Positions 24,069-49,541 are shown, counted from the stretch's first letter. The stretch: DNA of 64,000 nt from Candidatus Omnitrophota bacterium (GCA_023247255.1 JAHFGV010000005.1:6067-70066), one strand, 5' to 3'. A program made the numbers and translations. The notes: generated from the letters alone by a model not told the origin.

Positions 24069-24224
24069 CAGCCGACCGGAGTTTGAGCACAGAAAACTGA
24101 TTGCGCAATAGGTCTATTGAAGCCCGCGAGAGGGCTGCTCCATTGCGAGTCCTTCTCGTTCTCCTTGACGGTTGTGGCGCGTAGGCGTATTCTTCATGAG
24201 ATGGGTGACGAACCAAGAGCCTTC

Positions 24225-24875
24225 ATGGGCCAATTCCTCTCTCGTATGGAGCCTTTCAGACGACTCAGCCAGGCTGAACGGCTACGGCTTGCTGCTGTCG
24301 CCCGTGAGAAACGCTATGACAAAGGCGACACCATCTTCCGCGCAGGTCAGCCAGCCGATGCCGTCTGCGTCGTCAGAGAAGGCCGCGTCCACTTGATGAA
24401 ATTTCTCGAAGGCGGGCAGGCGTCCACGACGTGCGTCATGACGCCCGGGGAAACGTTCTGTTGTCTGCCGGCGCTTGACGGAAAACCGTACCCCGTGGAT
24501 GCCGTCGCTGCAGTGGACTCCACGGTCATTTGCATTCCTACCAGCGCCTTCCATGAGCTCCTGCGCAAGAACCCCGCGTTCCTCCAAGACTCACTCTGCC
24601 TCTTCTGCGATCGGCTGCGCCAGGTCGAGGACAAGAGTTGCATGACCTACGACTCCGTCGAGCGGCGGCTGGCCAAATCACTCCTCATGCTCTCAAAGAA
24701 GTTCGGCCCGACGATTCCGCTGACCAAACAGGAGCTGGCCGAGCTGGCCAATACCACCCAGGAGACCACGATCCGAATTTTAAGCCAACTGAGCAAGCAA
24801 GGGGTGATTCGTTCCGCCCGCGGGAAAACCACGATCCTGCGCCCAGAGAAGCTCTCCGCCTTCCTCGACCCGTAA
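24225..24875 (+). CDS. Crp/Fnr-family transcriptional regulator
   Basis: cNMP-binding domain (RYDKGDTIFRAGQPADAVCVVREGRVHLMK) plus a C-terminal HTH (LTKQELAELANTTQETTIRILSQLSKQGVI). Start could be as far upstream as 24117. Confidence 0.75.
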   Translation: MGQFLSRMEPFRRLSQAERLRLAAVAREKRYDKGDTIFRAGQPADAVCVVREGRVHLMKFLEGGQASTTCVMTPGETFCCLPALDGKPYPVDAVAAVDSTVICIPTSAFHELLRKNPAFLQDSLCLFCDRLRQVEDKSCMTYDSVERRLAKSLLMLSKKFGPTIPLTKQELAELANTTQETTIRILSQLSKQGVIRSARGKTTILRPEKLSAFLDP

Positions 24876-25056: not shown

Positions 25057-25107
25057 TAGAAGGATTCCCTGTTGAGCGCTACAGTTAGATATGAAAGGAG
25101 GCGCAGG

Positions 25108-25761
25108 ATGAACGCGGTCGAGCGTCTGCGGCGGGATCACACGATCCTCAGAGCCAAGCTGAGCGTCTTGGAAGGGGCGCTGACCATGGGGTCGGAGACA
25201 TGGTTCGTGCTCCGGGAAATTTGCCACGCGCTCTCTCGCCAGCTCCAGGATCACATCAAACGTGAAGAGGAGCTGGTCACGGCGTGCAAAGAAGCACTGC
25301 CCGACGACGTGCTGGCCCATCTCACCGTCGGGCATAAGGACGAGCCTGCGTTGCTGCGGACGATCAACCGGCTGTTTATCGAGGAGCAGGGGCATTCTCT
25401 TGCGAGCATCAGGCCGTCGTTGACGAGGCTCATTCTCGGCCTGCGTGGTCACATGGACGAAGAGGAGGCCGAGTTGTTCCCGGCGATTGAAGGGGTCCTG
25501 AGCGACCATGAAGCAGCGGAGGTTCAAGAGCCGCTTCCGCCTGTCAGGCTGCGCGAGGAGATGACGGTCAACCATGTACTCCATACTTACCCGCAAACCA
25601 AACCACTCCTTGAACGGCTCTTCATCAACGTTCCGTATGAGGGCTACGACTGCCTAGATGAAGTCGCCTGGAGACGGGGAATGGACTGCTGCCAATTCAT
25701 CGGGCTGCTTGAGGAGGCGATCAGCGTGGCGTACCACTGTGATGAGATCGTAGCAGCATGA
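25108..25761 (+). CDS. hemerythrin-like domain protein with C-terminal DUF1858-like domain
   Basis: N-terminal LRRDHTILRAKLSVLE ... His/Glu-rich helices. C-terminal MTVNHVLHTYPQTKPLLERLF. Encoded next to a Crp/Fnr regulator. Confidence 0.5.
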   Translation: MNAVERLRRDHTILRAKLSVLEGALTMGSETWFVLREICHALSRQLQDHIKREEELVTACKEALPDDVLAHLTVGHKDEPALLRTINRLFIEEQGHSLASIRPSLTRLILGLRGHMDEEEAELFPAIEGVLSDHEAAEVQEPLPPVRLREEMTVNHVLHTYPQTKPLLERLFINVPYEGYDCLDEVAWRRGMDCCQFIGLLEEAISVAYHCDEIVAA

Positions 25762-25848: not shown

Positions 25849-26925
25849 GTGAACCTCCTCGTTGTGGGACTCAGTCATCGCACCGCGCCGCTCGAATTGC
25901 GCGAGCTGCTGGCGATCCCGTCACGCGAGTTGCCCGACACACTCGGCGATCTTCATACCCAGTTCGGGATCGATGAAGCGGTGATCCTGTCGACCTGCAA
26001 TCGGGTTGAGATCTACGTCATCACACCAGACCCCTCCGCAACCTCCTACGGCCTCATCGACTTCTTGAGTCATCGAAGCCACGTGGCCCCCGAGGCGTTC
26101 CAATCCCGGATGTATTGCCTAACGGGACCTGACGCGGTGAGACAGCTCTTTGGCGTCACTGCAGGGCTGGATTCGATGGTCCTTGGGGAGTCAGAAATCA
26201 CGGCCCAAGTGAAACAAGCCTATCGGGTGGCACAAACCGAAGAGACAACCGGGCTTGTGCTCCATCGCCTCTTCCAGAAAGCCTTGCACACGGCAAAGGT
26301 CATTCGATCCAAGACACGCTTAGGCTTTGGCCAAGCCTCCATCGGATCAATCGTTGTCGCGCTTGCCAGGAAACTCTTCGAAGGGCAACTTCAAAATTGC
26401 GAAGTCTTGCTTTGGGGAGCCGGAAAGGCGGCGGAATCGACTGCACGGTATCTCATCAAGAACGGGGTGGGCCAGTTGTGGATTGTCAACCGCACACCGC
26501 TCAAAGCGCGGGATCTTGCGACGCTTTGCCAAAGCGGCTGGCTCTCGTGGGAGCAGGCGTTGAAGCACCTCGCCCACGTCGATATTGCCATCGTCTGCAC
26601 CCAAGCGCCGCACTACGTCATCGATCAAGGCGACCTCGATGCGGTTGCGGCTCAGCGCGGCAGCCGCCCCCTGTGTCTCGTTGACCTGGCGGTGCCTCGC
26701 AACGTCGAGCCGTCCCTCGCGCGGCATCCCGGTGTGCGCCTCTACAACATCGATGATCTCCAAACCATTACGCAGGCTGCACAATCGCAGCGTGAACAGG
26801 AACGCGAACGCTCTGACGCGCTCATTCAGGAGCAGGTCAACCATTTCTCTCGTTGGTGGATGGCAGTTTCCCACAAGAAGGAGGATGTTCCATGCCGATC
26901 CGTCGAGGCCTTCTCGTCGGTGTGA
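25849..26925 (+). CDS. hemA: glutamyl-tRNA reductase
   Basis: MNLLVVGLSHRTAPLELRE ... ILSTCNRVEIY ... NAD(P)-binding GAGKAAESTARYL. 358 aa, somewhat short. Confidence 0.85.
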   Translation: MNLLVVGLSHRTAPLELRELLAIPSRELPDTLGDLHTQFGIDEAVILSTCNRVEIYVITPDPSATSYGLIDFLSHRSHVAPEAFQSRMYCLTGPDAVRQLFGVTAGLDSMVLGESEITAQVKQAYRVAQTEETTGLVLHRLFQKALHTAKVIRSKTRLGFGQASIGSIVVALARKLFEGQLQNCEVLLWGAGKAAESTARYLIKNGVGQLWIVNRTPLKARDLATLCQSGWLSWEQALKHLAHVDIAIVCTQAPHYVIDQGDLDAVAAQRGSRPLCLVDLAVPRNVEPSLARHPGVRLYNIDDLQTITQAAQSQREQERERSDALIQEQVNHFSRWWMAVSHKKEDVPCRSVEAFSSV

Positions 26926-28118
26926 GTCTCGTCGCGGCGCTTACGCTCGGAGAATCAGCGTGGGCAACGATCGAGAACCTCAAAAGCTACAAGGCAGCCT
27001 ATCCCGATAAAGATCCCAAGGCCTATTCGTGCAAGGCCTGCCACGAGGGCCTCATCGGGAAGAAAGACAACCTCAACGCCTATGGTCTCACCTTGCAGAA
27101 GTTCAAAGTGGATGCCGGGGCGAAGAAATTGACCGAAGAAGATTTTCGGGCGTTCGAGGCTGCGGATGCTGATGGGGATGGCGCCTCCAATCTTGATGAG
27201 CTGGACGCGGGCACTGATCTGAATGATCCCACGTCCGTGCCGGAGGGCGCTGGGCAAACGCCAGAAAAAAAAGAAGAAAGCCCAGGCACTGAGCAGCAGA
27301 CAAGCCCTCCAGGCGGCGCGTCGCAACTGAATCCAGGGACACTGAAACAGTTGCAGGCCTACCTGGAGGAGCAGATCGTCCCAGACGTTCAAGCGGCGCC
27401 AGAGGAATCGTCAGTGTCTAGGCGGCATGACGACAAAACAGCGTCCAACGCCAAATCCTCCCAACCCGAACAGGCTGAGTACGTGGGGATGGAGACCTGC
27501 GCGATGTGTCATAACAAGCAGCACCAGGAATTTCTCCACTCAACCCATGCCAGGATCGCAATCCCCGGAGAGACCAAGGCGCAAGGTTGTGAGACCTGTC
27601 ATGGGCCCGGCAGTCTGCACGTTGCTGCCGGTGGCGGTCGTGGCGTCGGTGGGATTATCAATCCGAAGAAGGATCCCGGCGCCTGTTTTGCCTGTCACCT
27701 CGACAAGAAAGCGGAATTTCGTTTGCCCCATCACCATCCCGTGATGGAAGGCAAGATGAGTTGTGCGGATTGCCACAATCCCCACGGTGAGGATGTGCGG
27801 CCGTGGTCAGCGACGACGCTGAAGGATATCAATGAGGCCTGCTTTCGGTGCCACAAGGAACAGCGCGGCCCATTCGCCTGGGAACACGAGGCGCTGCGGG
27901 AAGGTTGCACGACCTGTCACAAGGTTCATGGCTCGATTCACGAGAAGATGCTGCTCGTCCGGGACAACAACTTGTGCCTGCGCTGCCATACGCAGACGAA
28001 CTTCCCGACCATTGGCAGGTCCAGCCATGCTGGCCGGCTTCCCCAAGGGACGTGCTTTAGCGCGGGATGCCATACGGCGGTTCACGGATCGAACTTCGAC
28101 GATCACCTCCGCTACTAA
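26892..28118 (+). CDS. periplasmic multiheme (8-9 heme) cytochrome c with acidic Ca-binding-like N-terminal linker
   Basis: Signal peptide MPIRRGLLVGVSLVAALTLGESAWA. Eight CxxCH motifs plus one CxxxCH (CFSAGCH). A DADGDGASNLDELDAGTDLNDP TSP3-like acidic repeat lies after heme 1. Confidence 0.75.
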   Translation: MPIRRGLLVGVSLVAALTLGESAWATIENLKSYKAAYPDKDPKAYSCKACHEGLIGKKDNLNAYGLTLQKFKVDAGAKKLTEEDFRAFEAADADGDGASNLDELDAGTDLNDPTSVPEGAGQTPEKKEESPGTEQQTSPPGGASQLNPGTLKQLQAYLEEQIVPDVQAAPEESSVSRRHDDKTASNAKSSQPEQAEYVGMETCAMCHNKQHQEFLHSTHARIAIPGETKAQGCETCHGPGSLHVAAGGGRGVGGIINPKKDPGACFACHLDKKAEFRLPHHHPVMEGKMSCADCHNPHGEDVRPWSATTLKDINEACFRCHKEQRGPFAWEHEALREGCTTCHKVHGSIHEKMLLVRDNNLCLRCHTQTNFPTIGRSSHAGRLPQGTCFSAGCHTAVHGSNFDDHLRY

Positions 28119-28130
28119 AGGAGACGCCTC

Positions 28131-30191
28131 ATGCGCGCGATGCTTTGTTGGACGTTGGGAGGAATTCTGGGTGTGAGTCTATGGTTACCCTCACGCCTTG
28201 CTGAGGCTGCGGACCCGGAGGTTTCCCTTTCCCTGGAGCCCATCCGTTATGCGTTCGTCAATGGCGACCGGGATAAGTTTAGCGCCCATCATTGGATGAA
28301 AGACAACTACGTCGGAGGCGTGAAGGAGTTTTCCTTCGACTACGCCCTTGCGGATGGAACGCAGCTCTCCGCAGAAAGCCACGCGCTCATTGATCAAAAC
28401 GATTTGGGCGCTGACGTCTCACTTAAGAAAGACTCACTGGGCTTTTTCAATCTCGGCTACTCCGAATTCCGCAAGTATTACGATAAAACCGGTGGTGTGT
28501 ACTATCCGTTTACCACCCTTCGCAGCAACGATACGTTTAAGGACCTTGCTCTGGACATCGGTCACCTCAGCCTTGAAAGCGGGTTGACCCTGGAAGGCTG
28601 GCCTGACCTGACCTTCGAGTACGAGCGCGAATTCAAGGATGGGGCGAAATCGCGCCTGAGCTGGGTCCCAACGAAGGAAGGGACCACCACCCGGAATATC
28701 GGTCCCTCGTGGCAAGATCTTGATGAGGTCGTCGACTCATTTGGCCTCAAAGCCGATCATGAGATCGCAGGATTCACTCTCAAGGGCGAGCAGCGATGGG
28801 AGTTCGTGCGGACCGAAACCTTTCGGGAGGAGAAATTTCTCGCGACAACAGGTGTCGCAGCAGACACCAAGATTCGACGGCAGGACCAAGCCCCGCAAGC
28901 CACCTTGATGACGACGACGTTAGGCGGGGAGCGTTCGTTCTTCGCTGACAAGATATTTACATCGATGGGCTACCATTTCGCCCACATGGATAATCGGGAA
29001 TTCGAGACAATCGTCGAGTCGAACGCGGCTGGAACCGTAACAAACTTTTCGAATCCGAAGCAGATCCGTAATGCGCGCGCCGATAACGACTACGATACCC
29101 ATACCTGGGTAGGGAACTTCATGATCAACCCCTGGAACTGGCTGAGCCTCGGGACCAAACTCAAGGCTGAAGCGATTCACCGGGAGAGCGACTCAAGCTA
29201 TCCGGCGGATGCCTCGCCGAACTCCACGGGCGGCAGCACCCCGAATGGGGCGATCGACTCTCTCGTGGCCAGTCTCAACAAGAACAAGGCCGTTCGCTGG
29301 GGGGAAGGAGTGTCCCTGCGGTTTTTTGGCATCCCACGCACCGCTCTCTACACTGATTTGGAGTTGGAGCAATCGCGAGTAATCTTGGCAGAGGATCGGA
29401 AAGATTTAGTGACGATCCCGAATGTCAACGAGGATTTCAGCCGCTACACTGTCACCAACGTCCGACGAGGGACGTGGACATTGGGCGGCCATGTCGCGCC
29501 GGGGTCGTTCCTCGATCTGACGACGCAGGTCCGGCGACGTGTCAACAACAACGACTACGATGACCAACGGGAAACCGTCGCCTCAGGGACGGCGCTGTCC
29601 GCATTCGTCGATATGCAGAACATCCATACGGATGAGTTCACCACGCGGGCCACGCTGCGGCCCTCTCGGTGGTTTCGCCCCTCGTTCCGGTACCAGTTCC
29701 GTAACGATAAATATGCGACTCGGACGGAAGCGCAGGATACCGTAAAGACGGGTATGCTCTCGAACATCTACACTTTTGACGTAACGGCACAACCGTTGCG
29801 AGACCTCACGACCACCGCCTCCTTCTCGCGTCAGACGGCCGTCACCACCACTCCCGCGGGTTCGGCGTCGTCAGCAAACGTTCCTGGGTTTCGCGCAAAT
29901 GTCAACACGTGGCTTTTCAGCACCGACTACAGCCCAAGGGCGAATGTGAGTATCACCAACGCGCTGCTCTATTCGCGCGCAAGAAACTTCAACGATTTTA
30001 CCGCCAGCGGGATGCCGTTCGGGACCTCGTTTGATCGGCTGGATGTGACCACAGGTCTGAAGTGGGCGCTGACCGAGGATACGTCTGTTGGCACCGAATA
30101 CGCATTCTACTCGTATCTGCCCAATTCGCTGACCGAAGTGGGCGACTACCATGCCCACGTCATCTGGCTCGAGTTGTCGAAGCAGTTTTGA
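28131..30191 (+). CDS. putative outer-membrane beta-barrel (porin partner of the preceding cytochrome, MtrB/PioB/MtoB-like)
   Basis: 686 aa with a signal peptide, alternating amphipathic beta-strand patterns and an aromatic C-terminus ...HVIWLELSKQF. Gene order cytochrome then barrel matches mtrAB/pioAB/mtoAB. No sequence comparison was possible. Confidence 0.45.
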   Translation: MRAMLCWTLGGILGVSLWLPSRLAEAADPEVSLSLEPIRYAFVNGDRDKFSAHHWMKDNYVGGVKEFSFDYALADGTQLSAESHALIDQNDLGADVSLKKDSLGFFNLGYSEFRKYYDKTGGVYYPFTTLRSNDTFKDLALDIGHLSLESGLTLEGWPDLTFEYEREFKDGAKSRLSWVPTKEGTTTRNIGPSWQDLDEVVDSFGLKADHEIAGFTLKGEQRWEFVRTETFREEKFLATTGVAADTKIRRQDQAPQATLMTTTLGGERSFFADKIFTSMGYHFAHMDNREFETIVESNAAGTVTNFSNPKQIRNARADNDYDTHTWVGNFMINPWNWLSLGTKLKAEAIHRESDSSYPADASPNSTGGSTPNGAIDSLVASLNKNKAVRWGEGVSLRFFGIPRTALYTDLELEQSRVILAEDRKDLVTIPNVNEDFSRYTVTNVRRGTWTLGGHVAPGSFLDLTTQVRRRVNNNDYDDQRETVASGTALSAFVDMQNIHTDEFTTRATLRPSRWFRPSFRYQFRNDKYATRTEAQDTVKTGMLSNIYTFDVTAQPLRDLTTTASFSRQTAVTTTPAGSASSANVPGFRANVNTWLFSTDYSPRANVSITNALLYSRARNFNDFTASGMPFGTSFDRLDVTTGLKWALTEDTSVGTEYAFYSYLPNSLTEVGDYHAHVIWLELSKQF

Positions 30192-30634
30192 TGTGTCCTC
30201 GTCAGCCCCTCAGTCGCCGGGTTTTCCTGGCGCTTTGCCTCAGGGGTGGTGGGCTTGCCCTGCTTGGGGCTGCGCTCTATCCCATCCTGCGGTATCTCTA
30301 TCCTCCCCGAGGCGTTGAATCCTCCGTCTCCAGCGTTGCGGCGGCGAAGGTGGGGGATCTGGCGACGAATACCGCGAAGATCTTCCGGTTCGGCAGTCGG
30401 CCCGGCCTCCTCATTCGTTCCCCCCAAGGCGAGCTCAAAGCCTTCTCGGCGGTGTGCACCCACCTCAACTGCACCGTTCAGTACGACAGCGACGCGAGCA
30501 TCATCTGGTGCGCCTGCCACAACGGCAAGTATGACTTAAACGGACAGGTCATCTCCGGCCCTCCCCCACGACCACTCGATGCCTACCAGGTGAACGTCCG
30601 CGGAGAAGACATCATCGTCTCCAAGACGTCCTAG
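30191..30634 (+). CDS. Rieske [2Fe-2S] protein
   Basis: TAT-like SRRVFLALCL. Rieske boxes CTHLNC and CACHNGKYD. About 147 aa. ATG overlaps the upstream stop. Confidence 0.8.
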   Translation: MCPRQPLSRRVFLALCLRGGGLALLGAALYPILRYLYPPRGVESSVSSVAAAKVGDLATNTAKIFRFGSRPGLLIRSPQGELKAFSAVCTHLNCTVQYDSDASIIWCACHNGKYDLNGQVISGPPPRPLDAYQVNVRGEDIIVSKTS

Positions 30635-30638
30635 CCTG

Positions 30639-31709
30639 ATGGGGTACTTCGAGCACCTACGCGCATTCTTGCATGAGCGCTACCGGCTGGGTGGCCTAGT
30701 GGATCTCGCCACGCATAAGACGGTCCCCATCCACCGCCACAGCGTCTGGTACTACTGGGGCGGCATGACGCTCGTGCTCATCGGCATCCAGATCATCAGC
30801 GGTGTGCTGCTGTTGCTGTACTACCGCCCATCAGCCCAGGAAGCCTTCGAGTCGGTTCGCTTCCTCATGACGCGGGTGCAATTCGGGTGGCTGGTGCGCT
30901 CCGTGCACGCGTGGGCGGCGAACCTGGCGATCTTCTGCGCGATGGTGCATCTGGCCAGCGTCTTTTTCCTGAAGGCGTATCGGCCACCCCGTGAACTGAC
31001 CTGGGTGACCGGGGTTGTGTTGTTGTTTCTGCTATTTGGTTTCGGATTTACCGGCTACCTCCTGCCGTGGAATACGCTGGCGTTTTTCGCCACCAAGGTC
31101 GGCACGGAAATCGCGGGGATTGTGCCCGTCGTCGGGCCTGTCGTTCAAATCTTTCTGCGCGGTGGAAGCGACGTTGGGGATGTGACGATCACGCGGTTCT
31201 TTTGGCTTCATGTCGCAATCCTGCCAATCGGCCTGATGACACTCTTAAGCCTTCATCTGCTCATGATCCAGCTCCAGGGCATGAGCAAACCGCCTTGGGT
31301 TAAGAGCAATCGGTCCATGCCGTTCTTTCCGAATTTTTTCCTGCGCGATCTGGTTGCCTGGTCACTCATACTGGGGATAGTGCTGTGTGTGAGCGTGCAC
31401 TGGCCCGCGACGCTCGGCGAAAAGGCCGATCCGTTCGCTCCGACACCCGTGGGCATCCAACCGGAATGGTATTTTCTCTGGATGTTTCAGACGCTCAAGA
31501 TTTTCCCTGGCCACCTGTTTGGTCTCGAGGGTGAGTTAGTCGCGGTGGGATTGACCGGACTGGCGGGTCTTGCGCTGCTACTCGTTCCATGGCTGGATCG
31601 CCCCGCCCGACGGGAGCAATCATCCTGGCTGGTATGGGCTGTTGGCGTGTTGGGCATTGCCTATGTCGTCGGGATGACCGGCTACGCGCTATGGGTGAAA
31701 CCTCACTGA
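30639..31709 (+). CDS. cytochrome b (fused b6 / subunit IV type)
   Basis: 356 aa. His ligands lie in TM helices (VHAWAANLAIFCAMVHL, WLHVAILPIGLMTLLSLHLLMIQ). PEWYFL motif present. Confidence 0.85.
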   Translation: MGYFEHLRAFLHERYRLGGLVDLATHKTVPIHRHSVWYYWGGMTLVLIGIQIISGVLLLLYYRPSAQEAFESVRFLMTRVQFGWLVRSVHAWAANLAIFCAMVHLASVFFLKAYRPPRELTWVTGVVLLFLLFGFGFTGYLLPWNTLAFFATKVGTEIAGIVPVVGPVVQIFLRGGSDVGDVTITRFFWLHVAILPIGLMTLLSLHLLMIQLQGMSKPPWVKSNRSMPFFPNFFLRDLVAWSLILGIVLCVSVHWPATLGEKADPFAPTPVGIQPEWYFLWMFQTLKIFPGHLFGLEGELVAVGLTGLAGLALLLVPWLDRPARREQSSWLVWAVGVLGIAYVVGMTGYALWVKPH

Positions 31710-32995
31710 TGACAGGGTATCGTCTACGGGTGGCACTCGGACTTCTGCTGTGCCCTGGCTTTGTGTGGTCGGCTGAGAAGCCGAATAGTTGTGTCGAGTG
31801 CCACAAGCAGGTGGAGGGCCAAACGCGAGGGCCGGCCACACTGGCTGCAGAGGACGTGCATTTCCAGCGAGGCTTGTCCTGCGTGGATTGCCATGGCGGC
31901 GATCCAACAGCGATGGATCCTCAAGCCGCGATGGACCCGGCTAAAGGGTTCCTCGGTCGCCCGAGGCGGGAGCAGATTCCCCAGTTTTGCGCCCGGTGCC
32001 ACGCGGATCCGGCCACCATGCGCAAGTACAATCCCAATCTTCCGACTGACCAATACGCGAAGTACCTGACCAGTCAGCACGGGAAGCGCTTCAGTGTTGG
32101 CGATGCCGATGTGCCGGTCTGCATCAGTTGCCACGAGGCGCACGGCATCCGCTCGAAAAAAGACCCAGCCTCGCCGGTCTACCCGACGAACATCCCCGGA
32201 ACCTGCGCGAGCTGCCACAGCGACGCGTCGATCATGGACAAACACGGCTTGCCGGTGAACCAGCACTGGGACTACTCGCAGAGCGTCCACGGCCAGGCGC
32301 TGTTGTTCCGTGGCGATCGTGCGGCTCCCCATTGCGCGAGCTGCCACGGATCGCACGAAGCGGCCAAACCTAGGACGGTCGCAATCGGCAACGTCTGCGC
32401 TCAGTGCCATAGCCTCACGCGCGATCTGTTTGCAAAGAGTCCCCACAAGGCCGCGCATGAAGCCTTAGGGCTTCCGGAGTGCGAGGTCTGCCACGGCAAT
32501 CACCTGATCCGCAAGCCAAGCGACGAGATGCTTGGGACGGGACAAGATGCGGTGTGTGTCAGTTGTCACGAGCCAGGGTCGACCGGCTACGTCACCGCGC
32601 AGCAGATGCGCAGCGCCATCGAGCAACTGAAAACCCACATGGCCAGCGCTGAGGCAGCCGTCAGGCACGCAGCGGAGTTGGGCATGGATGTCGGTGACGC
32701 GGAATTTGAGCTTCGCGAGGCGATGACCCAACTCACGCAAGAGCGCACCTACGTCCACTCTTTCTCCGCCGCAACCATGGAACCCATTGCCGAGGAGGGA
32801 ACTCACCACGCCCTGCGGGCCGAGGGGCAAGCCCGCCAGGCGATCCGTGAGTTTCATTTCCGCCGTCAGGGCTTGTGGGTCACCCTGATCATTCTCGCCC
32901 TCGTGGTTTCTGGACTCCTTCTGAAGATTCGAGACTTGGAGCGATCGGACTCGACAGACAAGATGGACGACACATCCCCTCGCGACTCCTCGTAA
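31709..32995 (+). CDS. multiheme (about 9 heme) cytochrome c with C-terminal membrane anchor
   Basis: Signal peptide, then nine CxxCH motifs and a C-terminal TM helix WVTLIILALVVSGLLLKI. Start overlaps the cytochrome b stop. Confidence 0.75.
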   Translation: MTGYRLRVALGLLLCPGFVWSAEKPNSCVECHKQVEGQTRGPATLAAEDVHFQRGLSCVDCHGGDPTAMDPQAAMDPAKGFLGRPRREQIPQFCARCHADPATMRKYNPNLPTDQYAKYLTSQHGKRFSVGDADVPVCISCHEAHGIRSKKDPASPVYPTNIPGTCASCHSDASIMDKHGLPVNQHWDYSQSVHGQALLFRGDRAAPHCASCHGSHEAAKPRTVAIGNVCAQCHSLTRDLFAKSPHKAAHEALGLPECEVCHGNHLIRKPSDEMLGTGQDAVCVSCHEPGSTGYVTAQQMRSAIEQLKTHMASAEAAVRHAAELGMDVGDAEFELREAMTQLTQERTYVHSFSAATMEPIAEEGTHHALRAEGQARQAIREFHFRRQGLWVTLIILALVVSGLLLKIRDLERSDSTDKMDDTSPRDSS

Positions 32996-33032
32996 AATCT
33001 GCCATTTCCGGCTATGATATCTGCGGAGCATC

Positions 33033-34550
33033 ATGAACCACACATCGATGCCAAAACCCCCCAGCCTCTTGCGCAACCCGCTGAGCTTTTTCGGCCTCGC
33101 CGTCGCCATCACGAGCACGGCGTTTGGCCTGCCCATGATGTTCGTCGACATGTTCAGTCGACGCACGCATCCGTATCTTGCTGTGCTCGTTTATCTCGTG
33201 CTGCCGTTCGTTGCAGCAGGCGGCGTCGGCTTAGTCCTGCTTGGAGCATTGTGGGAACGCCGTCGAAGACGCCGACGGCCTGGCATGGTAGTGCCACCCC
33301 TGCCATCCATCGATCTCAATCGAAGCGCCCACCAGATTGCTGTGGCTGGAGCACTCACAACGTTCATGACTATTGTGGCCATGCTCTCCGTGACCGGCTA
33401 CCGGGCGTACCACTTTACGGAGTCGGTCAAATTCTGCGGCCTGGTCTGTCACCAGGTGATGAAACCGGAGTATACGGCGTATCAGTATTCTCCGCATGCG
33501 CGCGTGGCCTGCACCCAGTGCCATGTCGGGCCTGGTGCAAGCTGGTTCGTGCGCTCAAAGATCACAGGAGCGTATCAGGTTTACGCGGTTACATTCAACA
33601 AGTACCCGCGCCCGATTCCCACACCCGTGAAGAGCCTGCGTCCGGCGCAAGAAACTTGCGAGCAATGCCACTGGCCGGCGAAGTTTTTTGGCGCGCAGCA
33701 GAAAACCTTCACGCACTACATGGCGGATGAGCACAACAGCCCGTGGCAGATTCAGATGCTGCTGAAAATCGGCGGCGGCGATCCGTCGGTTGGCGCTCCT
33801 GCGGGCATTCACTGGCACATGAACATCAAGAACGATATTTATTACATTGCCTCAGATGAGCAGCGGGAAACCATTCCGTGGGTGCGCGTGGTCGAGCCGC
33901 AGGGACGCATCGCCGAATATATGTCGATGGAAAGTCCGCTCTCGCCGGAGCAGATCGTAAAGAGCGAAGTGCGCCGCATGGACTGCGTGGATTGCCACAA
34001 CCGGCCCTCCCACATCTTTCGACCGCCGGATCGTGCGGTGGAGGAGGCCTTCGAGACCGGCCGGCTAGAGCGGTCCCTGCCGTATCTGAAGCGCGAAGCC
34101 ATAAGGTTGTTGGCGCAAGAGTACCCCTCGGAGGAGCAGGCGTTATCAGCCATCCTGAAAGGCTTGGCCGAGTTCTACCAGAAGGACTATCCAGAGGTGT
34201 ATCGCGAACAGGCAGTCGCTATTCAACAGGCCACAGCTGAGTTGCAACGCATCTATTCGAGGAATTTCTTTCCCGAGATGCGCGCCGATTGGCGCGCCCA
34301 TCCCAACCACATGGGCCATCTAAATGCCGAAGGCTGCTTCCGCTGCCACGATGGGCTGCACAAAAACCGCGAGGGCAAGGTGCTAACCAAAGACTGTACC
34401 GCCTGTCACACGATCTTGGCCCAGGGGCCACCTGAGGAGGTGGCGCAAGCCAAGCTTGAAGCGCAGCCGTTTCGCCACCCGGTCGACGTGGGGATGGACG
34501 TGACGGAATTTAAGTGCAGCCAGTGTCATACCGGCACGAGCGGTCTCTAG
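33033..34550 (+). CDS. inner-membrane heptaheme cytochrome c (NapC/NirT-superfamily, ImcH-like)
   Basis: Three N-terminal TM helices followed by seven CxxCH motifs. 505 aa. Confidence 0.6.
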   Translation: MNHTSMPKPPSLLRNPLSFFGLAVAITSTAFGLPMMFVDMFSRRTHPYLAVLVYLVLPFVAAGGVGLVLLGALWERRRRRRRPGMVVPPLPSIDLNRSAHQIAVAGALTTFMTIVAMLSVTGYRAYHFTESVKFCGLVCHQVMKPEYTAYQYSPHARVACTQCHVGPGASWFVRSKITGAYQVYAVTFNKYPRPIPTPVKSLRPAQETCEQCHWPAKFFGAQQKTFTHYMADEHNSPWQIQMLLKIGGGDPSVGAPAGIHWHMNIKNDIYYIASDEQRETIPWVRVVEPQGRIAEYMSMESPLSPEQIVKSEVRRMDCVDCHNRPSHIFRPPDRAVEEAFETGRLERSLPYLKREAIRLLAQEYPSEEQALSAILKGLAEFYQKDYPEVYREQAVAIQQATAELQRIYSRNFFPEMRADWRAHPNHMGHLNAEGCFRCHDGLHKNREGKVLTKDCTACHTILAQGPPEEVAQAKLEAQPFRHPVDVGMDVTEFKCSQCHTGTSGL

Positions 34551-34627
34551 GCCTGCCCGCCTGTCGTCCAAAAGTGTGATCTGGGTCATAGTTCGTCTCC
34601 CTGCGTTCTGAGAAGATTACTTAGGCG

Positions 34628-36183
34628 ATGGGGGAGGCTCTGACGAGAAACGGCGGACGGATACGGCGCGTAGCGCTCTGCGCGCTCTTCACGTGCTGGA
34701 CCTGGGCGCCGCGGGCCATGGGAGAGGGCAGCGTCTCTCCAGCCGCGCAAGAGATCGACAACGCTGCCTGTCTGGCTTGCCATGGTGATCCCTCGGCAAT
34801 CCGCTTTGTGGACCACGCGAAGTTCGAGGCTTCCGTCCATGGGAGTTTTTCCTGCACTACCTGCCACGCGGATGTCGTCACCATTCCCCATGACGTGCCG
34901 CTGGAGTCGATCAGTCAGTCGCAGATCCCCCTCACGTGCGGCCAGTGCCATGAAGACATCAAGGCTGCCTACCAGCGGAGTATCCACGCTCAGGCGGTCG
35001 CCGCCGGCAAGCGCCATGCGCCCGTCTGCACCGACTGCCATGGTGAGCACTATGTGGCCCCGGTGAAAACGGAGGCGTCGAAAGTGTTTCCCTCGCACAT
35101 CCCGCAGACGTGCGCACAGTGCCACGCGGCGGAGCGCATCGTTACGAAGTATCGGTTGCCGGCGTACGTGGTCGATACGTACATGAGCAGCTTCCACGGC
35201 CTCATACACCAACTGGGATCCGTGACGGCCGCGAACTGCGCCTCCTGCCACGGGGCGCATGACATTCTCCCCGCGAACGACGAGCGTTCCTCGGTCAATC
35301 CGAAGAACCTGCCGAAAACCTGTGGCTCCTGCCATCCGGGCGTCGGCGCGTTCGTCGCACAGGGAAAGATTCACTCCGGCACACAGCCCGGAGCGGAACA
35401 TCCTGCGGTGACATTCGTTCGCCGGTTCTACCTCATCCTCATCGGTTTGGTCATTGGGGGCATGCTGATTCACAACGGTCTCGATTTCCGCAAAAAACTC
35501 TCGATCCATTACCAACGGATGGCCGCCAGCAGCGCGGTACAACGGATGAGTCTTAATGAGCGCCTTCAACATGGCGTGCTCTTGATCGCCTTTGCGACGC
35601 TCGCCTATACCGGATTTGCGTTAAAGTTCCCGCATGTCTGGTGGGCACGCCCCTTCATGGGCCGCGTCGACTGGCGCCGCCTGGGGCATCGGGGAGCGGC
35701 GGTCGTCTTCTGCCTGCTCGCCGGCTACCACCTCTGGTTCATGACGTGCACGAAACGGGGGCGGAGCGAGTTGCGCGCCTTGCGACCCGAACGAGCCGAC
35801 TTCACGCACCTGAGACGGATGCTCGGCTTCTATCTGGGTAGGAGCCGGGAGCAGCCGCGCGCGGCGCGGTACAGCTACGTGGAGAAAGCGGAGTATTGGG
35901 CGCGGTCTGGGGTTCAGTCATCATGGTGCTCACCGGCGGTCTGATGACCTGGCAGAATTGGACATTGCGCTTCCTGCCCAAGTGGGCGTTCGATGTTTTT
36001 ATCACGGTGCATTTTTATGAAGCACTCCTCGCATGCTTGGCGATCCTTATTTGGCACCTCTACTTCGTCATGTACGATCCCGATGAATACCCGATGAAGT
36101 GGACGTGGATCAGCGGCAAGGCCTCACCCACCGACGAGGCACATCGGCATCCAGGCGACGCCGAGGAAGGCAATCCAGGCTGA
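34628..36183 (+). CDS. CbcL-like fusion of a heptaheme cytochrome c with a FdnI/HydC-type di-heme cytochrome b (interrupted by a frameshift near 35897)
   Basis: Seven CxxCH motifs, then TM helices with conserved His (RFYLILIGLVIGGMLIHNG, HGVLLIAF, HRGAAVVFCLLAGYHLW). The reading frame shifts -1 at the tattgggcgcgg G-run and continues as VWGSVIMVLTGGLMTW ... HFYEALLACLAILIWHLYF. Confidence 0.6.
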
Positions 36184-36269
36184 ATCCTCTAAGACTTAAC
36201 GCCGTGTTGGCGCAAAAACATACCTCGGAGGCGCAAACGTCCTCTGTATGATAAAATAGAAACCTTGCC

Positions 36270-38051
36270 ATGACACCCTTCGTCCGATTCCTTGGATCGC
36301 TGAGCATCGCGGTGCCGCTGCTGATCGTGATTGCCCTGGTGCTCGCATGGGGCACCATCTATGAAACCCGCTTTGGCACGGCGGCGGTTCAGCGCTTTGT
36401 CTACCACGCGTGGTGGTTTCAAGCGCTCCTCGGCTTTCTGGCGATCAACCTCGCCGTGGCTGCGCTCGAGCGCTATCCGTGGCAGCGTCGACACCTGCCG
36501 TTTGTCCTGGCCCACATCGGCATCATCCTCATCCTGATTGGGGGGATTATCGGAGCCCGATTCGGCATCGAGGGTCAGATGATCATTCCGGAAGCTCAGG
36601 CCGAGCGCGTCCTCGAGCAGCCAGGCAATGTCCTTGTAGTGCGCCAGCCAAACCCGGGTCTATCTATCATCATCCCCACGCAGTTTGAAACGCAGGCCTG
36701 GGTGCATGAGCCGAACGCGACCTTTCCCGTGACTCTCGATGGCCGGACGATTGCGCTCACCGTCGACCGCTACTATCCCGACGCGGTGACGGATGAAGAA
36801 ATCACAAGCGGTGGCGCTGAGGACAATCCGGCTCTCCACATGCTGCTTACGCACAACGAGCAGCAGGATGCGGTGTGGCTCATGAGCAGGGACTCTGAGC
36901 GTTTTGGTATGGGCTGGGGTGAGGCGCACGTGCTCTTCCTTGAACCAAGAACTGCTTCTGAAGTCGATCGGCTTACTGGGGCTGGGCGCTCACCTGGCGT
37001 CGCGTCTGCGCGAGGCGTGATCGTTATCCGCCTACCCGGGATGCATGCGCCACGCGAGATTCCGGTTCCCGATGAGCGCAACCGATCCGTCGACGTCACA
37101 GGCACGCCCTATCAGATCATCTTCAAGGATTACTTTCCCGATTTTGCGATTACCGAACAGGGGATCGTGAGCCGCTCGCTTGAGGCCAATAACCCTGCGG
37201 TTTCTTTCATCATCACCGGACCCGAGGGAACCGATGCGTATTTGCTGTTTGCGCTCCATCCCGATTTTCAAACGATCCATGGCTTCGAACATAAGATCGA
37301 CGCCCAGGTGAGTTATACCCACACCGCCAGCGCTGCGCTGCCTCCCAATTGTATCGGGCTCATCCGTGCACCATCAGGAACCTTAATCGGTATCTTGACC
37401 GGCAGCGGGACCGATCGATCCGTGATCAATCCGCTGGAACTTGGCAAACGGTACACCCACCCTTCGCTCGGCTATCAGTTTGAAGTCGCCACGTACTATC
37501 CCCGTGCGGTTCTCACGCAGCACGTCACCAACCGAGGAGATGAAATCAAAGCCGAAACGCTTCATCTCGTGGGACGTGAAGGTGATCAGAGCGCAGAGGC
37601 GTGGTTGGGTTTGCGCGGCTCGGCAGAATTCGCGTTGGGAAAGGAGCCGGTTACGATTGAGTACCGACCGGCCCGATGGGAGCTGCCGTTTACCATCAAG
37701 CTCTTGGACTTTCGCAAGATCGACTATCCAGGAACGCAGATGGCCTCGGCGTTTGAAAGCGACGTGGAGCTCACCGATTCTCAGCGGGGTGTCATCCTGA
37801 TGCGCAAGATTACGATGAACAACCCCCTGCGCTACCGCGGGTTTAGCGTGTACCAATCCAGCTACATCGAAGGCCCGACGGAAACCACAGTGCTCTCGGT
37901 GCGCAATGATCCAGGAACCCCATTTGTTTATGCGGGGTTCATCATTGTGATCGCCGGCGTCGTCAGTATGTTTGTGCTCGGCACCCCCTCCACGACCGCA
38001 ACCCCTCCGCCTTCGATCCGGCGAGTACGCAGAAGGAGCCGCTCTTCATGA
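36270..38051 (+). CDS. ccsB: cytochrome c biogenesis protein ResB/CcsB
   Basis: 593 aa with N-terminal TM helices, a large soluble domain and a C-terminal TM. ResB-like. Confidence 0.8.
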   Translation: MTPFVRFLGSLSIAVPLLIVIALVLAWGTIYETRFGTAAVQRFVYHAWWFQALLGFLAINLAVAALERYPWQRRHLPFVLAHIGIILILIGGIIGARFGIEGQMIIPEAQAERVLEQPGNVLVVRQPNPGLSIIIPTQFETQAWVHEPNATFPVTLDGRTIALTVDRYYPDAVTDEEITSGGAEDNPALHMLLTHNEQQDAVWLMSRDSERFGMGWGEAHVLFLEPRTASEVDRLTGAGRSPGVASARGVIVIRLPGMHAPREIPVPDERNRSVDVTGTPYQIIFKDYFPDFAITEQGIVSRSLEANNPAVSFIITGPEGTDAYLLFALHPDFQTIHGFEHKIDAQVSYTHTASAALPPNCIGLIRAPSGTLIGILTGSGTDRSVINPLELGKRYTHPSLGYQFEVATYYPRAVLTQHVTNRGDEIKAETLHLVGREGDQSAEAWLGLRGSAEFALGKEPVTIEYRPARWELPFTIKLLDFRKIDYPGTQMASAFESDVELTDSQRGVILMRKITMNNPLRYRGFSVYQSSYIEGPTETTVLSVRNDPGTPFVYAGFIIVIAGVVSMFVLGTPSTTATPPPSIRRVRRRSRSS

Positions 38052-39709
38052 AACGCGCCTTTATGACGATTATGACGATGGCGTTATTGTTCGGAGCCTT
38101 GGCGAGATTTATGAGCGTATTCGCAGATCAGCCCGTTGCCCTGCCGCGCGAGGCGCTCGAGACCATACGTCGCATGGCCATCCAACACAATGGACGCAAC
38201 AAACCCTTCGACAGCTTTGCGCGAGAAACCCTCCGACTCATCACCGGCTCAGCGCGCGTGGGAAATGAAGATCCTGTCGAAACCATCTTGACCCTCATGG
38301 CCAGTCCCGACCATGGGCAGCAGTTGCTGCTTGTGTCGGTTCCATTTATCCCTCTGCGAAAGGCTCTGGGCATGGATCCCAAGGCGACGCAGGTGTCCTA
38401 CAACGATTTGGTTGCGACACGCAAGCTCATGCGGCTGCTGCCCCCGATTGTCCAAAAGCAGCAGCGCGAAGAGAAACTTTCGATGCTGGAAGAAGAGACG
38501 ATGGATGTCTTCCAGCGATTTGCCACCCTGAGCACTCTGCTCGAGCAAAAGCTCAACCTCGTGCCTCCACCTGTTGGATCTGCAGAGCGTGTGTGGCAGC
38601 TTGTTGAGGAGCCGTCGGGCTATGCGCCAGCGCAGCAAGAGACCATTCGTACCGCATGGTCCGGGCTGATCGGTGCGGTGCAAGCTGGGCGGGGCGATGC
38701 GGTGATTACCTCAGCGCGTCATGCGGCAGATGCGCTGCGAGATCTGAGCCCTTCTCGCTATCCTCCTCGGTGGCGATTAGCGTTCGAGGTGTTCTACAAC
38801 CACGTCGCGCCATTTCGAATCGCCCAAGGGTTCTATCTGCTCTCAGCGATCCTGTTGTTTCTGAGCCTTGGCGCATTGAAGAAATTCCGGCCAGCGCTTT
38901 TGGGATTTGTCGCTTGCTGCTTCGCGTTTCTCGCGCATGGATCAGGTATCCTGATGCGCGTTGTTCTGGGTGAGCGTCCGCCGGTCTCGAATTTTTTTGA
39001 GACCACGCTGTGGCTGCCGTTCGTCGCAGTCGCCATTGCGCTCATCCTGGAACGTGTGTACCGGACTCGTTACATCGCCCTGGCTGCGGCGATCCTTGCG
39101 ACAATCACCCTGGTTCTCGCGGATCATCTGCCGCTGGACTCGAGCATCTCTCCGGTGGTCGCCGTGCTCCACAGCAATCTCTGGTTGACGATTCACGTGT
39201 TGACCATCGTGGCGAGCTACGGCGCGCTGACCCTGGCGATTGTGCTGGCGCACATGTATGGGGGGATGTACCTGAGTCGCCGCACGAGCGGCTCAACGTT
39301 AGATGCGTTGGGGACATTTCTCTATCGCGTCATCCAAGTCGGCGTCGTGTTATTGGCGGCGGGGATCATGCTGGGCGCCGTGTGGGCCAACGCCTCTTGG
39401 GGCCGTTACTGGGGCTGGGATCCGAAAGAGACCTGGGCGTTGATTACCCTCATCTGGTTCCTGGCGCTGCTGCACGGACGCTTCGCCGGATGGATCAGCG
39501 GTGTTGGCGTAGCCCTGTGCACCGTCGGCGGATTTTTTCTGCTGCTGATGACCTACTACGGTGTCAGCTTCTATCTCGTCGGTCTGCACAGCTATGCCGG
39601 TGCTCATGCCAAGCCCTTGCCCCCAGTTCTCATCGCCTACCTCATCGCTGAACTGGCGTTCATCATCGTGGTGAGCGTCTCAGCCATACTCCGCAGGCGG
39701 CCAGCGTAG
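38048..39709 (+). CDS. ccsA: cytochrome c biogenesis protein CcsA/ResC
   Basis: WWD motif WANASWGRYWGWDPKETWAL. 553 aa with a long N-terminal extension. Confidence 0.85.
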   Translation: MKRAFMTIMTMALLFGALARFMSVFADQPVALPREALETIRRMAIQHNGRNKPFDSFARETLRLITGSARVGNEDPVETILTLMASPDHGQQLLLVSVPFIPLRKALGMDPKATQVSYNDLVATRKLMRLLPPIVQKQQREEKLSMLEEETMDVFQRFATLSTLLEQKLNLVPPPVGSAERVWQLVEEPSGYAPAQQETIRTAWSGLIGAVQAGRGDAVITSARHAADALRDLSPSRYPPRWRLAFEVFYNHVAPFRIAQGFYLLSAILLFLSLGALKKFRPALLGFVACCFAFLAHGSGILMRVVLGERPPVSNFFETTLWLPFVAVAIALILERVYRTRYIALAAAILATITLVLADHLPLDSSISPVVAVLHSNLWLTIHVLTIVASYGALTLAIVLAHMYGGMYLSRRTSGSTLDALGTFLYRVIQVGVVLLAAGIMLGAVWANASWGRYWGWDPKETWALITLIWFLALLHGRFAGWISGVGVALCTVGGFFLLLMTYYGVSFYLVGLHSYAGAHAKPLPPVLIAYLIAELAFIIVVSVSAILRRRPA

Positions 39710-40157: not shown

Positions 40158-40214
40158 GACTCATGAAACAGACGTGAGCACTGCCACTAACCTCGATGCA
40201 TTTTGTAAAACCCC
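40158..40214. repeat. 57-bp element shared with the nuoJ upstream region (2645-2699)
   Basis: gactcatgaaacagacgtgagcactgccactaacc(t/g)cgatgcattttg(t/a)aaaaccc. Two mismatches over 55 bp. Confidence 0.5.
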
Positions 40215-40291
40215 AGTTACGACTGACGCCTTCCAAGTCTTCTTGCACCTGCTGTAGTGAATCCATCTGCTGCAGCGAATCTCGCGAAAGG

Positions 40292-42250
40292 TTGACAGGC
40301 TTGTCTGGCCAGCGTCACACGCCGAGCCTCATCGTAACCGGCAACCCCAACGTCGGGAAAAGCGTCATCTTCCAGCTCCTCACCGGCCGCTACGCCACCG
40401 TGTCGAACTATCCGGGCACCACGGTTGCAGTTACCCGAGGATCGGCTTCGTTAGACGGCCGGGTGGTTCGCGTCTACGACACGCCAGGAATCAATAGCTT
40501 GTTCGCCGCCTCAGAAGATGAGCTGGTCGCACGCGATCTGCTGCTGGGTGAACGAACCACCGTGGTGCAGGTTAGCGATGCCAAGAACCTGCTACGTGCC
40601 CTCACACTGACCTTGGAACTGGCTGAAGCTGGACTTCCATCCGTCCTGGATCTGAACATGATGGACGAAGCCAGGGAACGTCGAATCAGCATTGATACGA
40701 AGAAGCTCTCAGGGTTACTTGGGATCTCGGTTGTGCCGACCATTGCAACGCAGCGGTGGGGTATCGAGCGGTTGCGTCGAGTGATCCTGCAGGCACAGCA
40801 GGCTCGGGTTGGCGTTTGCTACCCCAAAGTGATTGAAGATGCCATTGCCAAGATGGTGGAGGTCCTACCAAAGACGCTGGGCGTACGGAAAGCCCTGGCG
40901 TTGTTCTGGCTTGCTGGGGATCGGAACATCATCGAGCAGCTCAAGAAGCAATTCGACCCATCAATCATCGAGGCGCTGACGGCAATCGCTGCGCAGGCTC
41001 AAGAACAGACCTCTGGCCCATTAGGGTTGCTGATCAGTCAAGCCCGACTCCGCGAGGCCGAGCGACTCGTCAAGCAGGTGATGACGACTGCACCTCTGGA
41101 GCGCCAGCGGTGGTTTTACCGCCTGGGTGATTGGGCGATGCACCCGGTTTGGGGGGTGCCCATCCTCGTTGGCGTCCTGGTCATGATGTACTTCCTCGTC
41201 GGAAATCTCGCAGCTCAGCGTGGCGTAGATTTCCTAGAAGACGTGGTCTTTGGGCGCTACCTCACCCCAGTCTTTCAGTGGGTTGTTCAAGGGGCGATCC
41301 CTTGGGGGTGGCTCAAGGCGCTCTTCATCGGTGAGTACGGCCTGCTGACGATGGCTCTGCCCTACGCTTTTGCGATCATCCTGCCCATCGTGGGGATGTT
41401 CTTTCTCTGCTTCGGATTGCTTGAGGATGTGGGCTACCTTCCTCGACTAGCCGTGATGGCCAATCGCTTTTGTCGGCTCCTGGGTCTCAACGGCAAGGCG
41501 GTGCTCCCACTCGTGCTGGGGTTGGGATGCGACACAATGGCCACGATGACCGCCCGCATCCTCGACTCGGATCGGGATCGGATCATCACAACGCTCTTGT
41601 TGGCACTCGGCATCCCTTGTTCCGCTCAACTGGGCGTCATCCTAGCGATGCTGGCGGGCCGCCCGCCGTTGGCCCTGGGGATTTGGCTTGGCGTGTTACT
41701 CATGGTGATCATTGTGGTTGGTCAAGCCGCGTCAAGAATCCTGCCGGGCGAGGAGAGCCCGTTTCTCTACGAGATCCCACCGCTTCGCACGCCGAAGCTG
41801 TCGAATGTGCTGATCAAGACGCTGGGTCGCATCGAGTGGTATGTGAAAGAAGCCGTCCCGCTGTTCTTCCTGGGAACCCTGGTGTTATTCCTCCTCGATG
41901 TGACAGGAGCCCTGGCGGTCTTCGAGCGAATCGGGACCCCGCTCATTGTCTCGTGGCTCGGGCTGCCAGCCAAAGCGACCAGTGCATTTCTGGTGGGATT
42001 TCTCCGACGGGATTTTGGTGCGGCCGGGCTCTTCGCGCTTCAGCGAAACGGAATGTTATCTGGAGTCCAGACCGTCGTCAGCCTCGTTACCATCACGCTG
42101 TTTGTCCCCTGCATCGCCCAGTACTTCATGATGGTCAAAGAGCGCGGCTGGAAACTCGCAAATCTGATGGCGGGGTTTGTCTTCGGGATGGCGCTGCTTG
42201 TTGGAGGTCTCCTCTTGCGCGTTCTCACCCTGTTGCGAGTTACCCTATGA
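40292..42250 (+). CDS. feoB: ferrous iron transporter FeoB
   Basis: G-domain LIVTGNPNVGKSVIF, DTPG, then a polytopic permease domain. Likely TTG start at 40292. The annotated ATG at 40196 lies inside the repeat. Confidence 0.85.
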   Translation: MTGLSGQRHTPSLIVTGNPNVGKSVIFQLLTGRYATVSNYPGTTVAVTRGSASLDGRVVRVYDTPGINSLFAASEDELVARDLLLGERTTVVQVSDAKNLLRALTLTLELAEAGLPSVLDLNMMDEARERRISIDTKKLSGLLGISVVPTIATQRWGIERLRRVILQAQQARVGVCYPKVIEDAIAKMVEVLPKTLGVRKALALFWLAGDRNIIEQLKKQFDPSIIEALTAIAAQAQEQTSGPLGLLISQARLREAERLVKQVMTTAPLERQRWFYRLGDWAMHPVWGVPILVGVLVMMYFLVGNLAAQRGVDFLEDVVFGRYLTPVFQWVVQGAIPWGWLKALFIGEYGLLTMALPYAFAIILPIVGMFFLCFGLLEDVGYLPRLAVMANRFCRLLGLNGKAVLPLVLGLGCDTMATMTARILDSDRDRIITTLLLALGIPCSAQLGVILAMLAGRPPLALGIWLGVLLMVIIVVGQAASRILPGEESPFLYEIPPLRTPKLSNVLIKTLGRIEWYVKEAVPLFFLGTLVLFLLDVTGALAVFERIGTPLIVSWLGLPAKATSAFLVGFLRRDFGAAGLFALQRNGMLSGVQTVVSLVTITLFVPCIAQYFMMVKERGWKLANLMAGFVFGMALLVGGLLLRVLTLLRVTL

Positions 42251-42359
42251 TTCCACCACCTGTGTGTTGGCCGCAGGCCGGGCGCTGGCGTGGCACGCGG
42301 CCCCCTCGATGGAGCCAGCGACCGGTTTCGCCTTCGGCGAAACCATATAGTGTGGTAGG

Positions 42360-49521: not shown

Positions 49522-49541
49522 CGAGATGAGGCGTGTGAGCG

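Follow-up and report, generated by a model that had tools for sequence, protein, structure and literature searches.

The extHIJKLMNOPQS (Cbc6) cluster of Geobacter encodes the porin ExtI and multiheme cytochromes together with a Rieske protein (ExtO), a cytochrome b (ExtP) and a subunit-IV-like protein (ExtQ) (PMC5877670). Versions of the porin-cytochrome (pcc) clusters without a surface cytochrome, in Anaeromyxobacter and Kuenenia, are proposed to span the membrane alone (PMC4245776). Geobacter uses ImcH at high and CbcL at low acceptor potentials (PMC6295460; bioRxiv 10.1101/2021.04.15.440034), and a requirement for ImcH in respiring high-potential extracellular acceptors has been shown genetically only in Geobacter (bioRxiv 10.1101/2021.04.15.440034). 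No mtrAB or mtoAB was reported adjacent to imcH (PMC6295460). Homologs of ImcH and CbcL were counted in Omnitrophica in 2018 (PMC6295460); in 2023, 'metal-reducing cytochromes' were called by FeGenie in 10/23 Omnitrophia species, on the basis of the DFE cluster of Desulfovibrio ferrophilus (PMC10066038). Here we describe nine co-oriented genes, A to I, at 26892-39709 on the plus strand of a 64,000-nucleotide (nt) stretch of DNA from a Candidatus Omnitrophota bacterium (GCA_023247255.1 JAHFGV010000005.1:6067-70066), called the window below. We favour reading them as an outer-membrane conduit resembling MtrAB that receives electrons from three parallel quinol-oxidising modules and runs outward, and give this reading about an even chance of being correct.

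The genes, located by listing and translating the open reading frames, and their predicted products are as follows (aa, amino acids; TM, transmembrane):

A, 26892..28118, + strand: MtrA-like cytochrome, periplasmic/outer-membrane, 408 aa
B, 28131..30191, + strand: MtrB-like sheath, outer-membrane beta barrel, 686 aa
C, 30191..30634, + strand: Rieske 2Fe-2S subunit with an N-terminal TM anchor
D, 30639..31709, + strand: cytochrome b, fusion of a b6-like N-terminal and a subunit-IV-like C-terminal part
E, 31709..32995, + strand: nonaheme cytochrome c with a signal peptide and a C-terminal TM anchor
F, 33033..34550, + strand: ImcH-type heptaheme cytochrome of the inner membrane, 505 aa
G, 34628..36183, + strand: CbcL/MtoC/MtrH-type protein, heptaheme c plus FdnI/HydC-like diheme b, frameshifted at 35903/35904
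H, 36270..38051, + strand: ResB/CcsB, system II cytochrome c maturation
I, 38048..39709, + strand: CcsA, system II heme lyase

Behind its signal peptide, A has eight CXXCH motifs and, as the last, a CX4CH (CFSAGCH). The initial annotation had described it as octaheme: the eight CXXCH motifs are there, but the CX4CH aligns with the last heme motif of MtrA and brings the likely heme sites to nine. One of them lies in a separate N-terminal domain; after a linker of ~70 aa, the other eight (seven CXXCH and the CX4CH) make up an MtrA-like domain. A phmmer search against the PDB aligned residues 197-402 of A with residues 61-325 of MtrA (6r2q_A, E-value 4.2e-32). Judged by its sequence, A is a true homolog of the structurally solved MtrA.

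We scanned GTDB species genomes and obtained 45 related loci, mostly of Candidatus Omnitrophota from groundwater. A exists there in a short form of ~250-285 aa, with seven CXXCH and the CX4CH, and in the long form of the window, ~377-408 aa, which has in addition the N-terminal monoheme domain, a TSP3-like acidic motif and a linker of ~70 residues rich in Pro and Glu. Every form ends in HGSNFDDHLRY, and the heme domain is nearly invariant.

B has a signal peptide, which contains its sole cysteine, and its C-terminus reads SKQF. Its AlphaFold2 model, built on an alignment of 39 homologs (pLDDT 89, pTM 0.78), consists entirely of beta structure between residue 30 and the C-terminus; it has ~26-28 strands and lacks an N-terminal plug. 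MtrB of 6R2Q reportedly has ~26 strands, and the modelled B would likewise be a large plug-less barrel of about that size, the form that characterises MtrB and PioB. When the model was compared with the whole PDB by Foldseek, the top match was MtrB (6r2q_B, E-value 7.4e-12, TM-scores 0.64/0.68), the next being receptors with TM-scores of ~0.4. We are thus confident in predicting that B is a transmembrane beta barrel, most like MtrB, in agreement with the outer-membrane barrel proposed initially.

The family of B is large. Its members number 143 in a set of 5.8 billion proteins, those named being metagenome-assembled genomes (MAGs) of Candidatus Omnitrophica, and a profile search of 1.84 billion cluster representatives (50% identity) returned 889 relatives at E <= 0.001. 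The family profile found no match among PDB sequences. The MtrB_PioB model (PF11854) matches one of 39 close relatives, over the N-terminal 170 residues (29.6 bits, cutoff 23), and 3/30 distant ones; that a few members reach or come near this model counts for a conduit.

In a sister clade of barrels of ~800 aa (e.g. P0335-P0394), a PSCyt1 monoheme cytochrome c domain is fused to the N-terminus of the barrel in 25/30 proteins, and an A-like octaheme cytochrome of 264-275 aa lies directly upstream in three of the four contexts read. Since one lineage has a monoheme domain fused to A and the other has it fused to B, the barrel family appears tied to electron transfer, not to nutrient uptake; we read these fusions as a probable sign of a periplasmic relay heme used by the barrel. 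The contigs of this clade (L047, L048, L050 and L051) look like those of Planctomycetota/Verrucomicrobiota heterotrophs, and in L047 a cupredoxin gene directly follows the barrel gene.

In every related locus with sequence upstream of B, A is the gene directly before it; where neither gene is broken, the gap is 3-194 nt in nearly all cases. At least 6 kb of sequence follows B in 26 loci, and in these the pair is followed by F in 18, by C-D-E in 12 and by G in nine; ResB occurs in 10/26 and CcsA in 13/26, hemA is directly upstream of A in 11/26 and a Crp-family regulator is found upstream of the cluster in 9/26. In distant loci F comes immediately after B, order and orientation being kept. Low-GC Omnitrophota have A and B alone among housekeeping genes; there, the gene just upstream of A encodes a conserved membrane protein of 172 aa for which Pfam has no match (L011 8724-9242; L034 8687-9205). 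A Nitrospira-like origin was considered and rejected, the named relatives of A, B and F being almost all MAGs that NCBI labels Candidatus Omnitrophota.

In the window the genes are tightly packed. The stop codon of hemA (26925) lies 34 nt inside A (start 26892), and A and B are 12 nt apart. One base is common to the stop of B and the start of C (TGATG, the Rieske start being 30191), and one to the stop of D and the start of E, which begins at the ATG at 31709 and not at the start of its open reading frame at 31589. Both of these overlaps had been pointed out in the initial annotation, and each is indeed of a single base. H and I overlap in ATGA at 38048. Overlapping stop and start codons of this kind suggest co-translation. 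Because the rest of the window contains one open reading frame with a single CXXCH, the 32 c-type heme sites of the cluster cannot be put down to chance. G+C content does not distinguish the cluster (0.59) from the window (0.58), and a scan for promoters and terminators gave counts at the level of shuffled sequence and is uninformative.

Three types of inner-membrane module follow the A-B pair. C matches Pfam Rieske (1.5e-13), with b6f PetC models as the nearest and the motifs CTHLNC and CACH. D matches Cytochrome_B (2.7e-48) and Cytochrom_B_C; its N-terminal part aligns with a cytochrome b6 in the PDB (6rqf_I, 2.5e-52) and its C-terminal part matches subunit IV. With Rieske cluster motifs in C and two histidine pairs in D (H-x13-H and H-x14-H), the two proteins have the hallmarks of bc/b6f complexes, and the Rieske protein and fused b6/subunit-IV cytochrome b of the initial annotation stand. 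D also scores 210 bits on the ExtP model (NF040969), under its cutoff. The Rieske box II of C (30191-30634) reads CACHNGKY, with Gly where the usual CPCHGS has Ser; the cluster may on this account be of a lower-potential, menaquinol type.

The adjoining c-type protein, in the place of the third redox subunit, is the nonaheme E and not a monoheme cytochrome c1 or cytochrome f. Its nine CXXCH motifs and single C-terminal TM helix (residues 390-408) agree with the anchored nine-heme cytochrome described before. E is probably the c-type subunit of the bc unit, because D and E overlap by one base and E co-occurs with C and D.

ImcH is defined by three TM helices, a CX3CH beside the third, six CXXCH, a length of 495-519 aa and a NapC/NirT-like stretch (PMC6295460). 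All of these are found in F: its three helices are N-terminal (20-38, 51-69 and 102-120), the CX3CH (CGLVCH) stands at 135 together with six CXXCH, and the NapC/NirT-like stretch matches PF03264 at 105-191 and the NrfH model TIGR03153. F would therefore be classed as ImcH by every published sequence feature. It is 77% identical to P0136 (OGX46065.1/OGX49280.1), with equal motif positions; these accessions are two of the three Omnitrophica ImcH homologs in Table S3 of PMC6295460, so that the ImcH-like heptaheme protein of the initial annotation has published counterparts.

G begins with a signal peptide and seven CXXCH motifs, within the range of 3-23 c-motifs of the CbcL/MtoC/MtrH family, and continues into a membrane domain. 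Intact homologs in L005, L008, L010 and L031 extend ~90 residues past the stop of the open reading frame in the window, where the missing part lies in another frame. With one base restored, G ends at 36183 and has 518 aa; the corrected protein matches Ni_hydr_CYTB (PF01292) at 51.1 bits (cutoff 30.1) and TIGR01583 at 3.3e-15. Its membrane histidines, one in each of three helices and two in a later helix (1+1+1+2), follow the arrangement described for CbcL (bioRxiv 10.1101/2021.04.15.440034). G thus has the CbcL/MtoC/MtrH architecture: the CbcL-like protein named initially is recovered, diheme b domain included, from a reading frame that is broken as it stands. Homologs of G elsewhere have mostly 11 hemes, against seven here.

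The genes for system II cytochrome c maturation follow directly, as had been annotated. H matches Pfam ResB (9.5e-31) and has four TM helices; I matches Cytochrom_C_asm (1e-30) and TIGR03144 and carries the WWD motif WGRYWGWD. A ResB-domain protein and a CcsA with a WWD motif, the two components that define system II, are both present.

The cluster is flanked by the following genes:

24117..24875, + strand: Crp/Fnr-family protein, probable regulator (Pfam cNMP_binding and HTH_Crp_2)
25072..25761, + strand: hemerythrin-domain protein (Pfam Hemerythrin), with a homolog upstream of the cluster in L005 and L006
25849..26925, + strand: hemA, glutamyl-tRNA reductase (Pfam GlutR_N/Shikimate_DH)
40196-43254: FeoB and a DtxR-type repressor with a FeoA domain, directly after CcsA

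At a distance of 5.5 kb from the cluster, the region 45368-51867 encodes a molybdoenzyme of the NxrA type with a twin-arginine (TAT) signal. It aligns end to end with Kuenenia NxrA (7b04_B), scoring 1848 bits, and the periplasmic NXR that had been noted in this genome is therefore genuine and of the Kuenenia type. A DUF2490 gene of outer-membrane-like character (48814-49521) is placed between nxrA and nxrB. We recognised no NxrC-type heme subunit in the region 45368-51867, and 51854-52801 has no family match. FeoB, DtxR and NXR were seen near the cluster in none of the other loci among the 45; a conserved linkage to any of them was rejected, as they adjoin it only in this genome. For this reason the cluster can hardly be called an unexpected capability beside an NXR, as the initial annotation had it; moreover, anammox bacteria with the same type of NXR have published pcc clusters (PMC4245776).

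Elsewhere in the window, a DDE transposase (DDE_Tnp_1/DDE_Tnp_4) is encoded at 21135-22136, ~2 kb upstream of the Crp regulator. Judged by the sizes and N-termini of the open reading frames, 3900-9383 encodes long membrane proteins resembling Mrp/Nuo-type antiporter subunits, and 9669-17611 is apparently an F1Fo ATP synthase operon in standard order. No carbon fixation genes were seen in the 64-kb window.

The identities and architecture of these parts, the barrel fold of B, the MtrA homology of A and the conserved pairing of the two lead us to the following mechanism. Quinol would be oxidised by one of three inner-membrane modules: the bc unit of C and D with E, the ImcH-type F or the CbcL/MtoC-type G. 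The periplasmic heme domains of these modules would pass electrons to A, probably through its N-terminal monoheme domain, held on the disordered linker of ~70 residues. We infer that A sits inside B, so that its eight-heme MtrA-like rod, within the 26-28-strand barrel, would carry the electrons across the outer membrane. Their most likely acceptors at the surface would be Fe(III)/Mn(IV) in soluble, chelated or colloidal form, humic substances or a partner cell. HemA, encoded upstream, and ResB and CcsA, encoded downstream, would serve to make and attach the ~32 c-type hemes.

Nothing in the sequence shows the direction of electron flow, and this includes the Fe(II) oxidation or uptake suggested by the initial annotation. 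Outward flow is favoured because ImcH and CbcL form the pairing of Geobacter metal reducers, because Omnitrophia are described as respiratory and without the Wood-Ljungdahl pathway (PMC10066038), and because a Crp/Fnr regulator precedes the operon. Neither of the two outcomes that had been named at the outset as fatal to the idea, a 686-aa protein that is no barrel and a set of ordinary nitrite/nitrate cytochromes without an outer-membrane part, is what we find.

Several observations weigh against a conduit running outward. By sequence, B matches no Pfam or NCBIfam model, MtrB_PioB (PF11854) included. A itself scores 161.9 bits on the DmsE family model TIGR03508 and does not reach its cutoff of 192.2, and it has eight MtrA-like hemes where ten are expected of the decahemes of that family. 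Its AlphaFold2 model (pLDDT 56) leaves the heme domain unmodelled and was kept out of the fold search. G is broken by a deletion of 1 nt at 35903/35904, where a Leu codon reads C-G for the CTG of intact homologs; this may be an assembly error or a real pseudogene. A and B stand alone in many genomes, and the inner-membrane partners are accordingly not obligatory. Finally, as in the Fe(II)-oxidising MtoAB and PioAB, the cluster encodes no dedicated surface cytochrome.

The last point leads to a serious rival, which we hold to be somewhat unlikely: the same conduit run inward, in the way put forward for MtoAB/PioAB, with Fe(II), a reduced mineral, a cathode-like solid or a partner cell as the electron source. 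These electrons could go downhill to a periplasmic terminal reductase, with the Kuenenia-type NXR as nitrate reductase, or uphill to quinone by a reversed bc unit or the MtoC-type G. Rieske/cytochrome b units can serve reverse electron flow, as is the case for petI of Acidithiobacillus, and the unit found here could do the same. Inward flow would also fit the genuine periplasmic NXR 5.5 kb away, the groundwater source of the MAGs and the cupredoxin directly after the barrel in one locus of the PSCyt1 clade. The lack of a surface cytochrome is shared with the two-component Mto and Pio systems and with the two-gene pcc clusters (PMC4245776), and members of the CbcL/MtoC/MtrH family adjoin mtoAB in Fe(II) oxidisers (PMC6295460). 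However, the ImcH homologs known so far all come from Fe(III) reducers (PMC6295460), the NXR adjoins the cluster in no other locus and we saw nothing for carbon fixation in the window; Omnitrophia, moreover, lack the Wood-Ljungdahl pathway, and their described metabolisms are respiratory, with uptake of sugars and amino acids (PMC10066038). The specific form in which the conduit feeds the NXR as a nitrate reductase, with the bc unit and G working uphill, seems to us rather improbable. It would be an enzymatic route across the whole envelope, by which Fe(II) is oxidised with nitrate or electrons are taken up from solids or host cells, in an uncultivated bacterium, perhaps ultra-small, of the Planctomycetota-Verrucomicrobiota-Chlamydiota (PVC) group.

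There are two further rivals. The bc unit, F and G could serve ordinary periplasmic respiration, of nitrate or nitrite via NXR or through oxidases, and lie next to A and B in a 'cytochrome island' whose members have heme supply, maturation genes and a regulator in common. That A and B occur without the other genes in many loci, and that the bc unit is present in just 12/26, would fit such an island. Rieske/cytochrome b complexes with multiheme subunits that feed periplasmic enzymes are known from anammox genomes. Nevertheless, gene order and orientation are conserved, the more distant loci having F right behind B; B and the Rieske gene overlap at stop and start, as do D and E; and Geobacter likewise co-locates a porin/cytochrome set with a Rieske/cytochrome b unit; we therefore consider the island a poor prospect. 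Iron acquisition, in which A and B reduce external Fe(III) and the adjacent FeoB takes up the Fe(II) for a very high heme demand, is suggested by FeoB and the DtxR/FeoA regulator directly after CcsA and by hemA within the block. It is very improbable all the same, since this linkage occurs in no other locus and three quinol-oxidising modules, one of them a bc unit of the Q-cycle type, far exceed the needs of assimilation.

If the outward conduit is real, the window holds, for a phylum without cultured members, a compact and fully linked parts list for extracellular electron transfer (EET) that covers quinol oxidation in three alternative 'gears', the outer-membrane wire and the supply of heme. 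MtrA-type wires would extend beyond the Proteobacteria, and a large unannotated barrel family (889 representatives, some of them fused to a cytochrome) would have been missed by current EET gene finders. The published statement that imcH never adjoins an mtrAB-like pair would need correcting, and the cycling of iron, manganese and humic substances in groundwater by Omnitrophota would become directly testable.

In the literature searched, recent Omnitrophota genome papers included, we found no description of this cluster. Neither the barrel family itself nor the MtrA homology of its partner was found described there, nor was imcH within the same operon as a conduit, nor the union of three types of quinol-oxidising module with a conduit and maturation genes. 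The initial annotation went further and held that no such combined module had been characterised, which overlooks extHIJKLMNOPQS of Geobacter (PMC5877670) as well as the ImcH and CbcL homologs listed for Omnitrophica (PMC6295460) and the 'metal-reducing cytochromes' of Omnitrophia (PMC10066038). We regard the cluster as a new arrangement of known EET parts, not as a new kind of system. The DFE cluster of Desulfovibrio ferrophilus was considered as the closest analogue and rejected: its annotated partners are beta-propeller proteins, and its cluster table contains no porin-type barrel.

Shewanella MtrAB(C) (6R2Q) is among the closest known systems. A is homologous to MtrA over hemes 3-10, the model of B is nearest to MtrB and the genes are adjacent, as in Shewanella. 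In contrast, B falls outside the MtrB_PioB model, A combines eight MtrA-like sites with an extra tethered monoheme domain, the window has no surface decaheme of the MtrC type, and the partners are ImcH, CbcL and a bc unit instead of CymA. MtoAB (with MtoC/CymA) of Gallionellaceae and PioAB of Rhodopseudomonas are, like A and B, two-component conduits without a surface cytochrome, and for MtoAB a gene of the CbcL/MtoC family is found in the same cluster (PMC6295460). Both differ in having proteobacterial decahemes and true MtrB-family barrels and in being linked to Fe(II) oxidation, whereas the window adds ImcH and the Rieske/cytochrome b pair.

The ext cluster of Geobacter resembles the window in placing an outer-membrane porin-like protein and cytochromes beside a Rieske/cytochrome b unit, D reaching 210 bits on ExtP. 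Its porin ExtI, of ~45 kDa, is unrelated to B, and it includes no ImcH or CbcL; it has instead a rhodanese and a selenoprotein cytochrome and is linked to selenite/tellurite reduction, and D, E and the other proteins of the window stay under the NCBIfam Ext cutoffs. F and G have the same architectures as ImcH and CbcL of Geobacter, with seven c-hemes in G against nine in CbcL; the Geobacter genes are linked neither to each other nor to outer-membrane conduits, while the window has all of them in one operon. The Geobacter Pcc (OmaB-OmbB-OmcB) and the two-gene pcc of Anaeromyxobacter and Kuenenia likewise join a porin-like barrel to a periplasmic multiheme cytochrome. The Pcc proteins are reported to be unrelated to Mtr (PMC4245776), whereas A is clearly related to MtrA.

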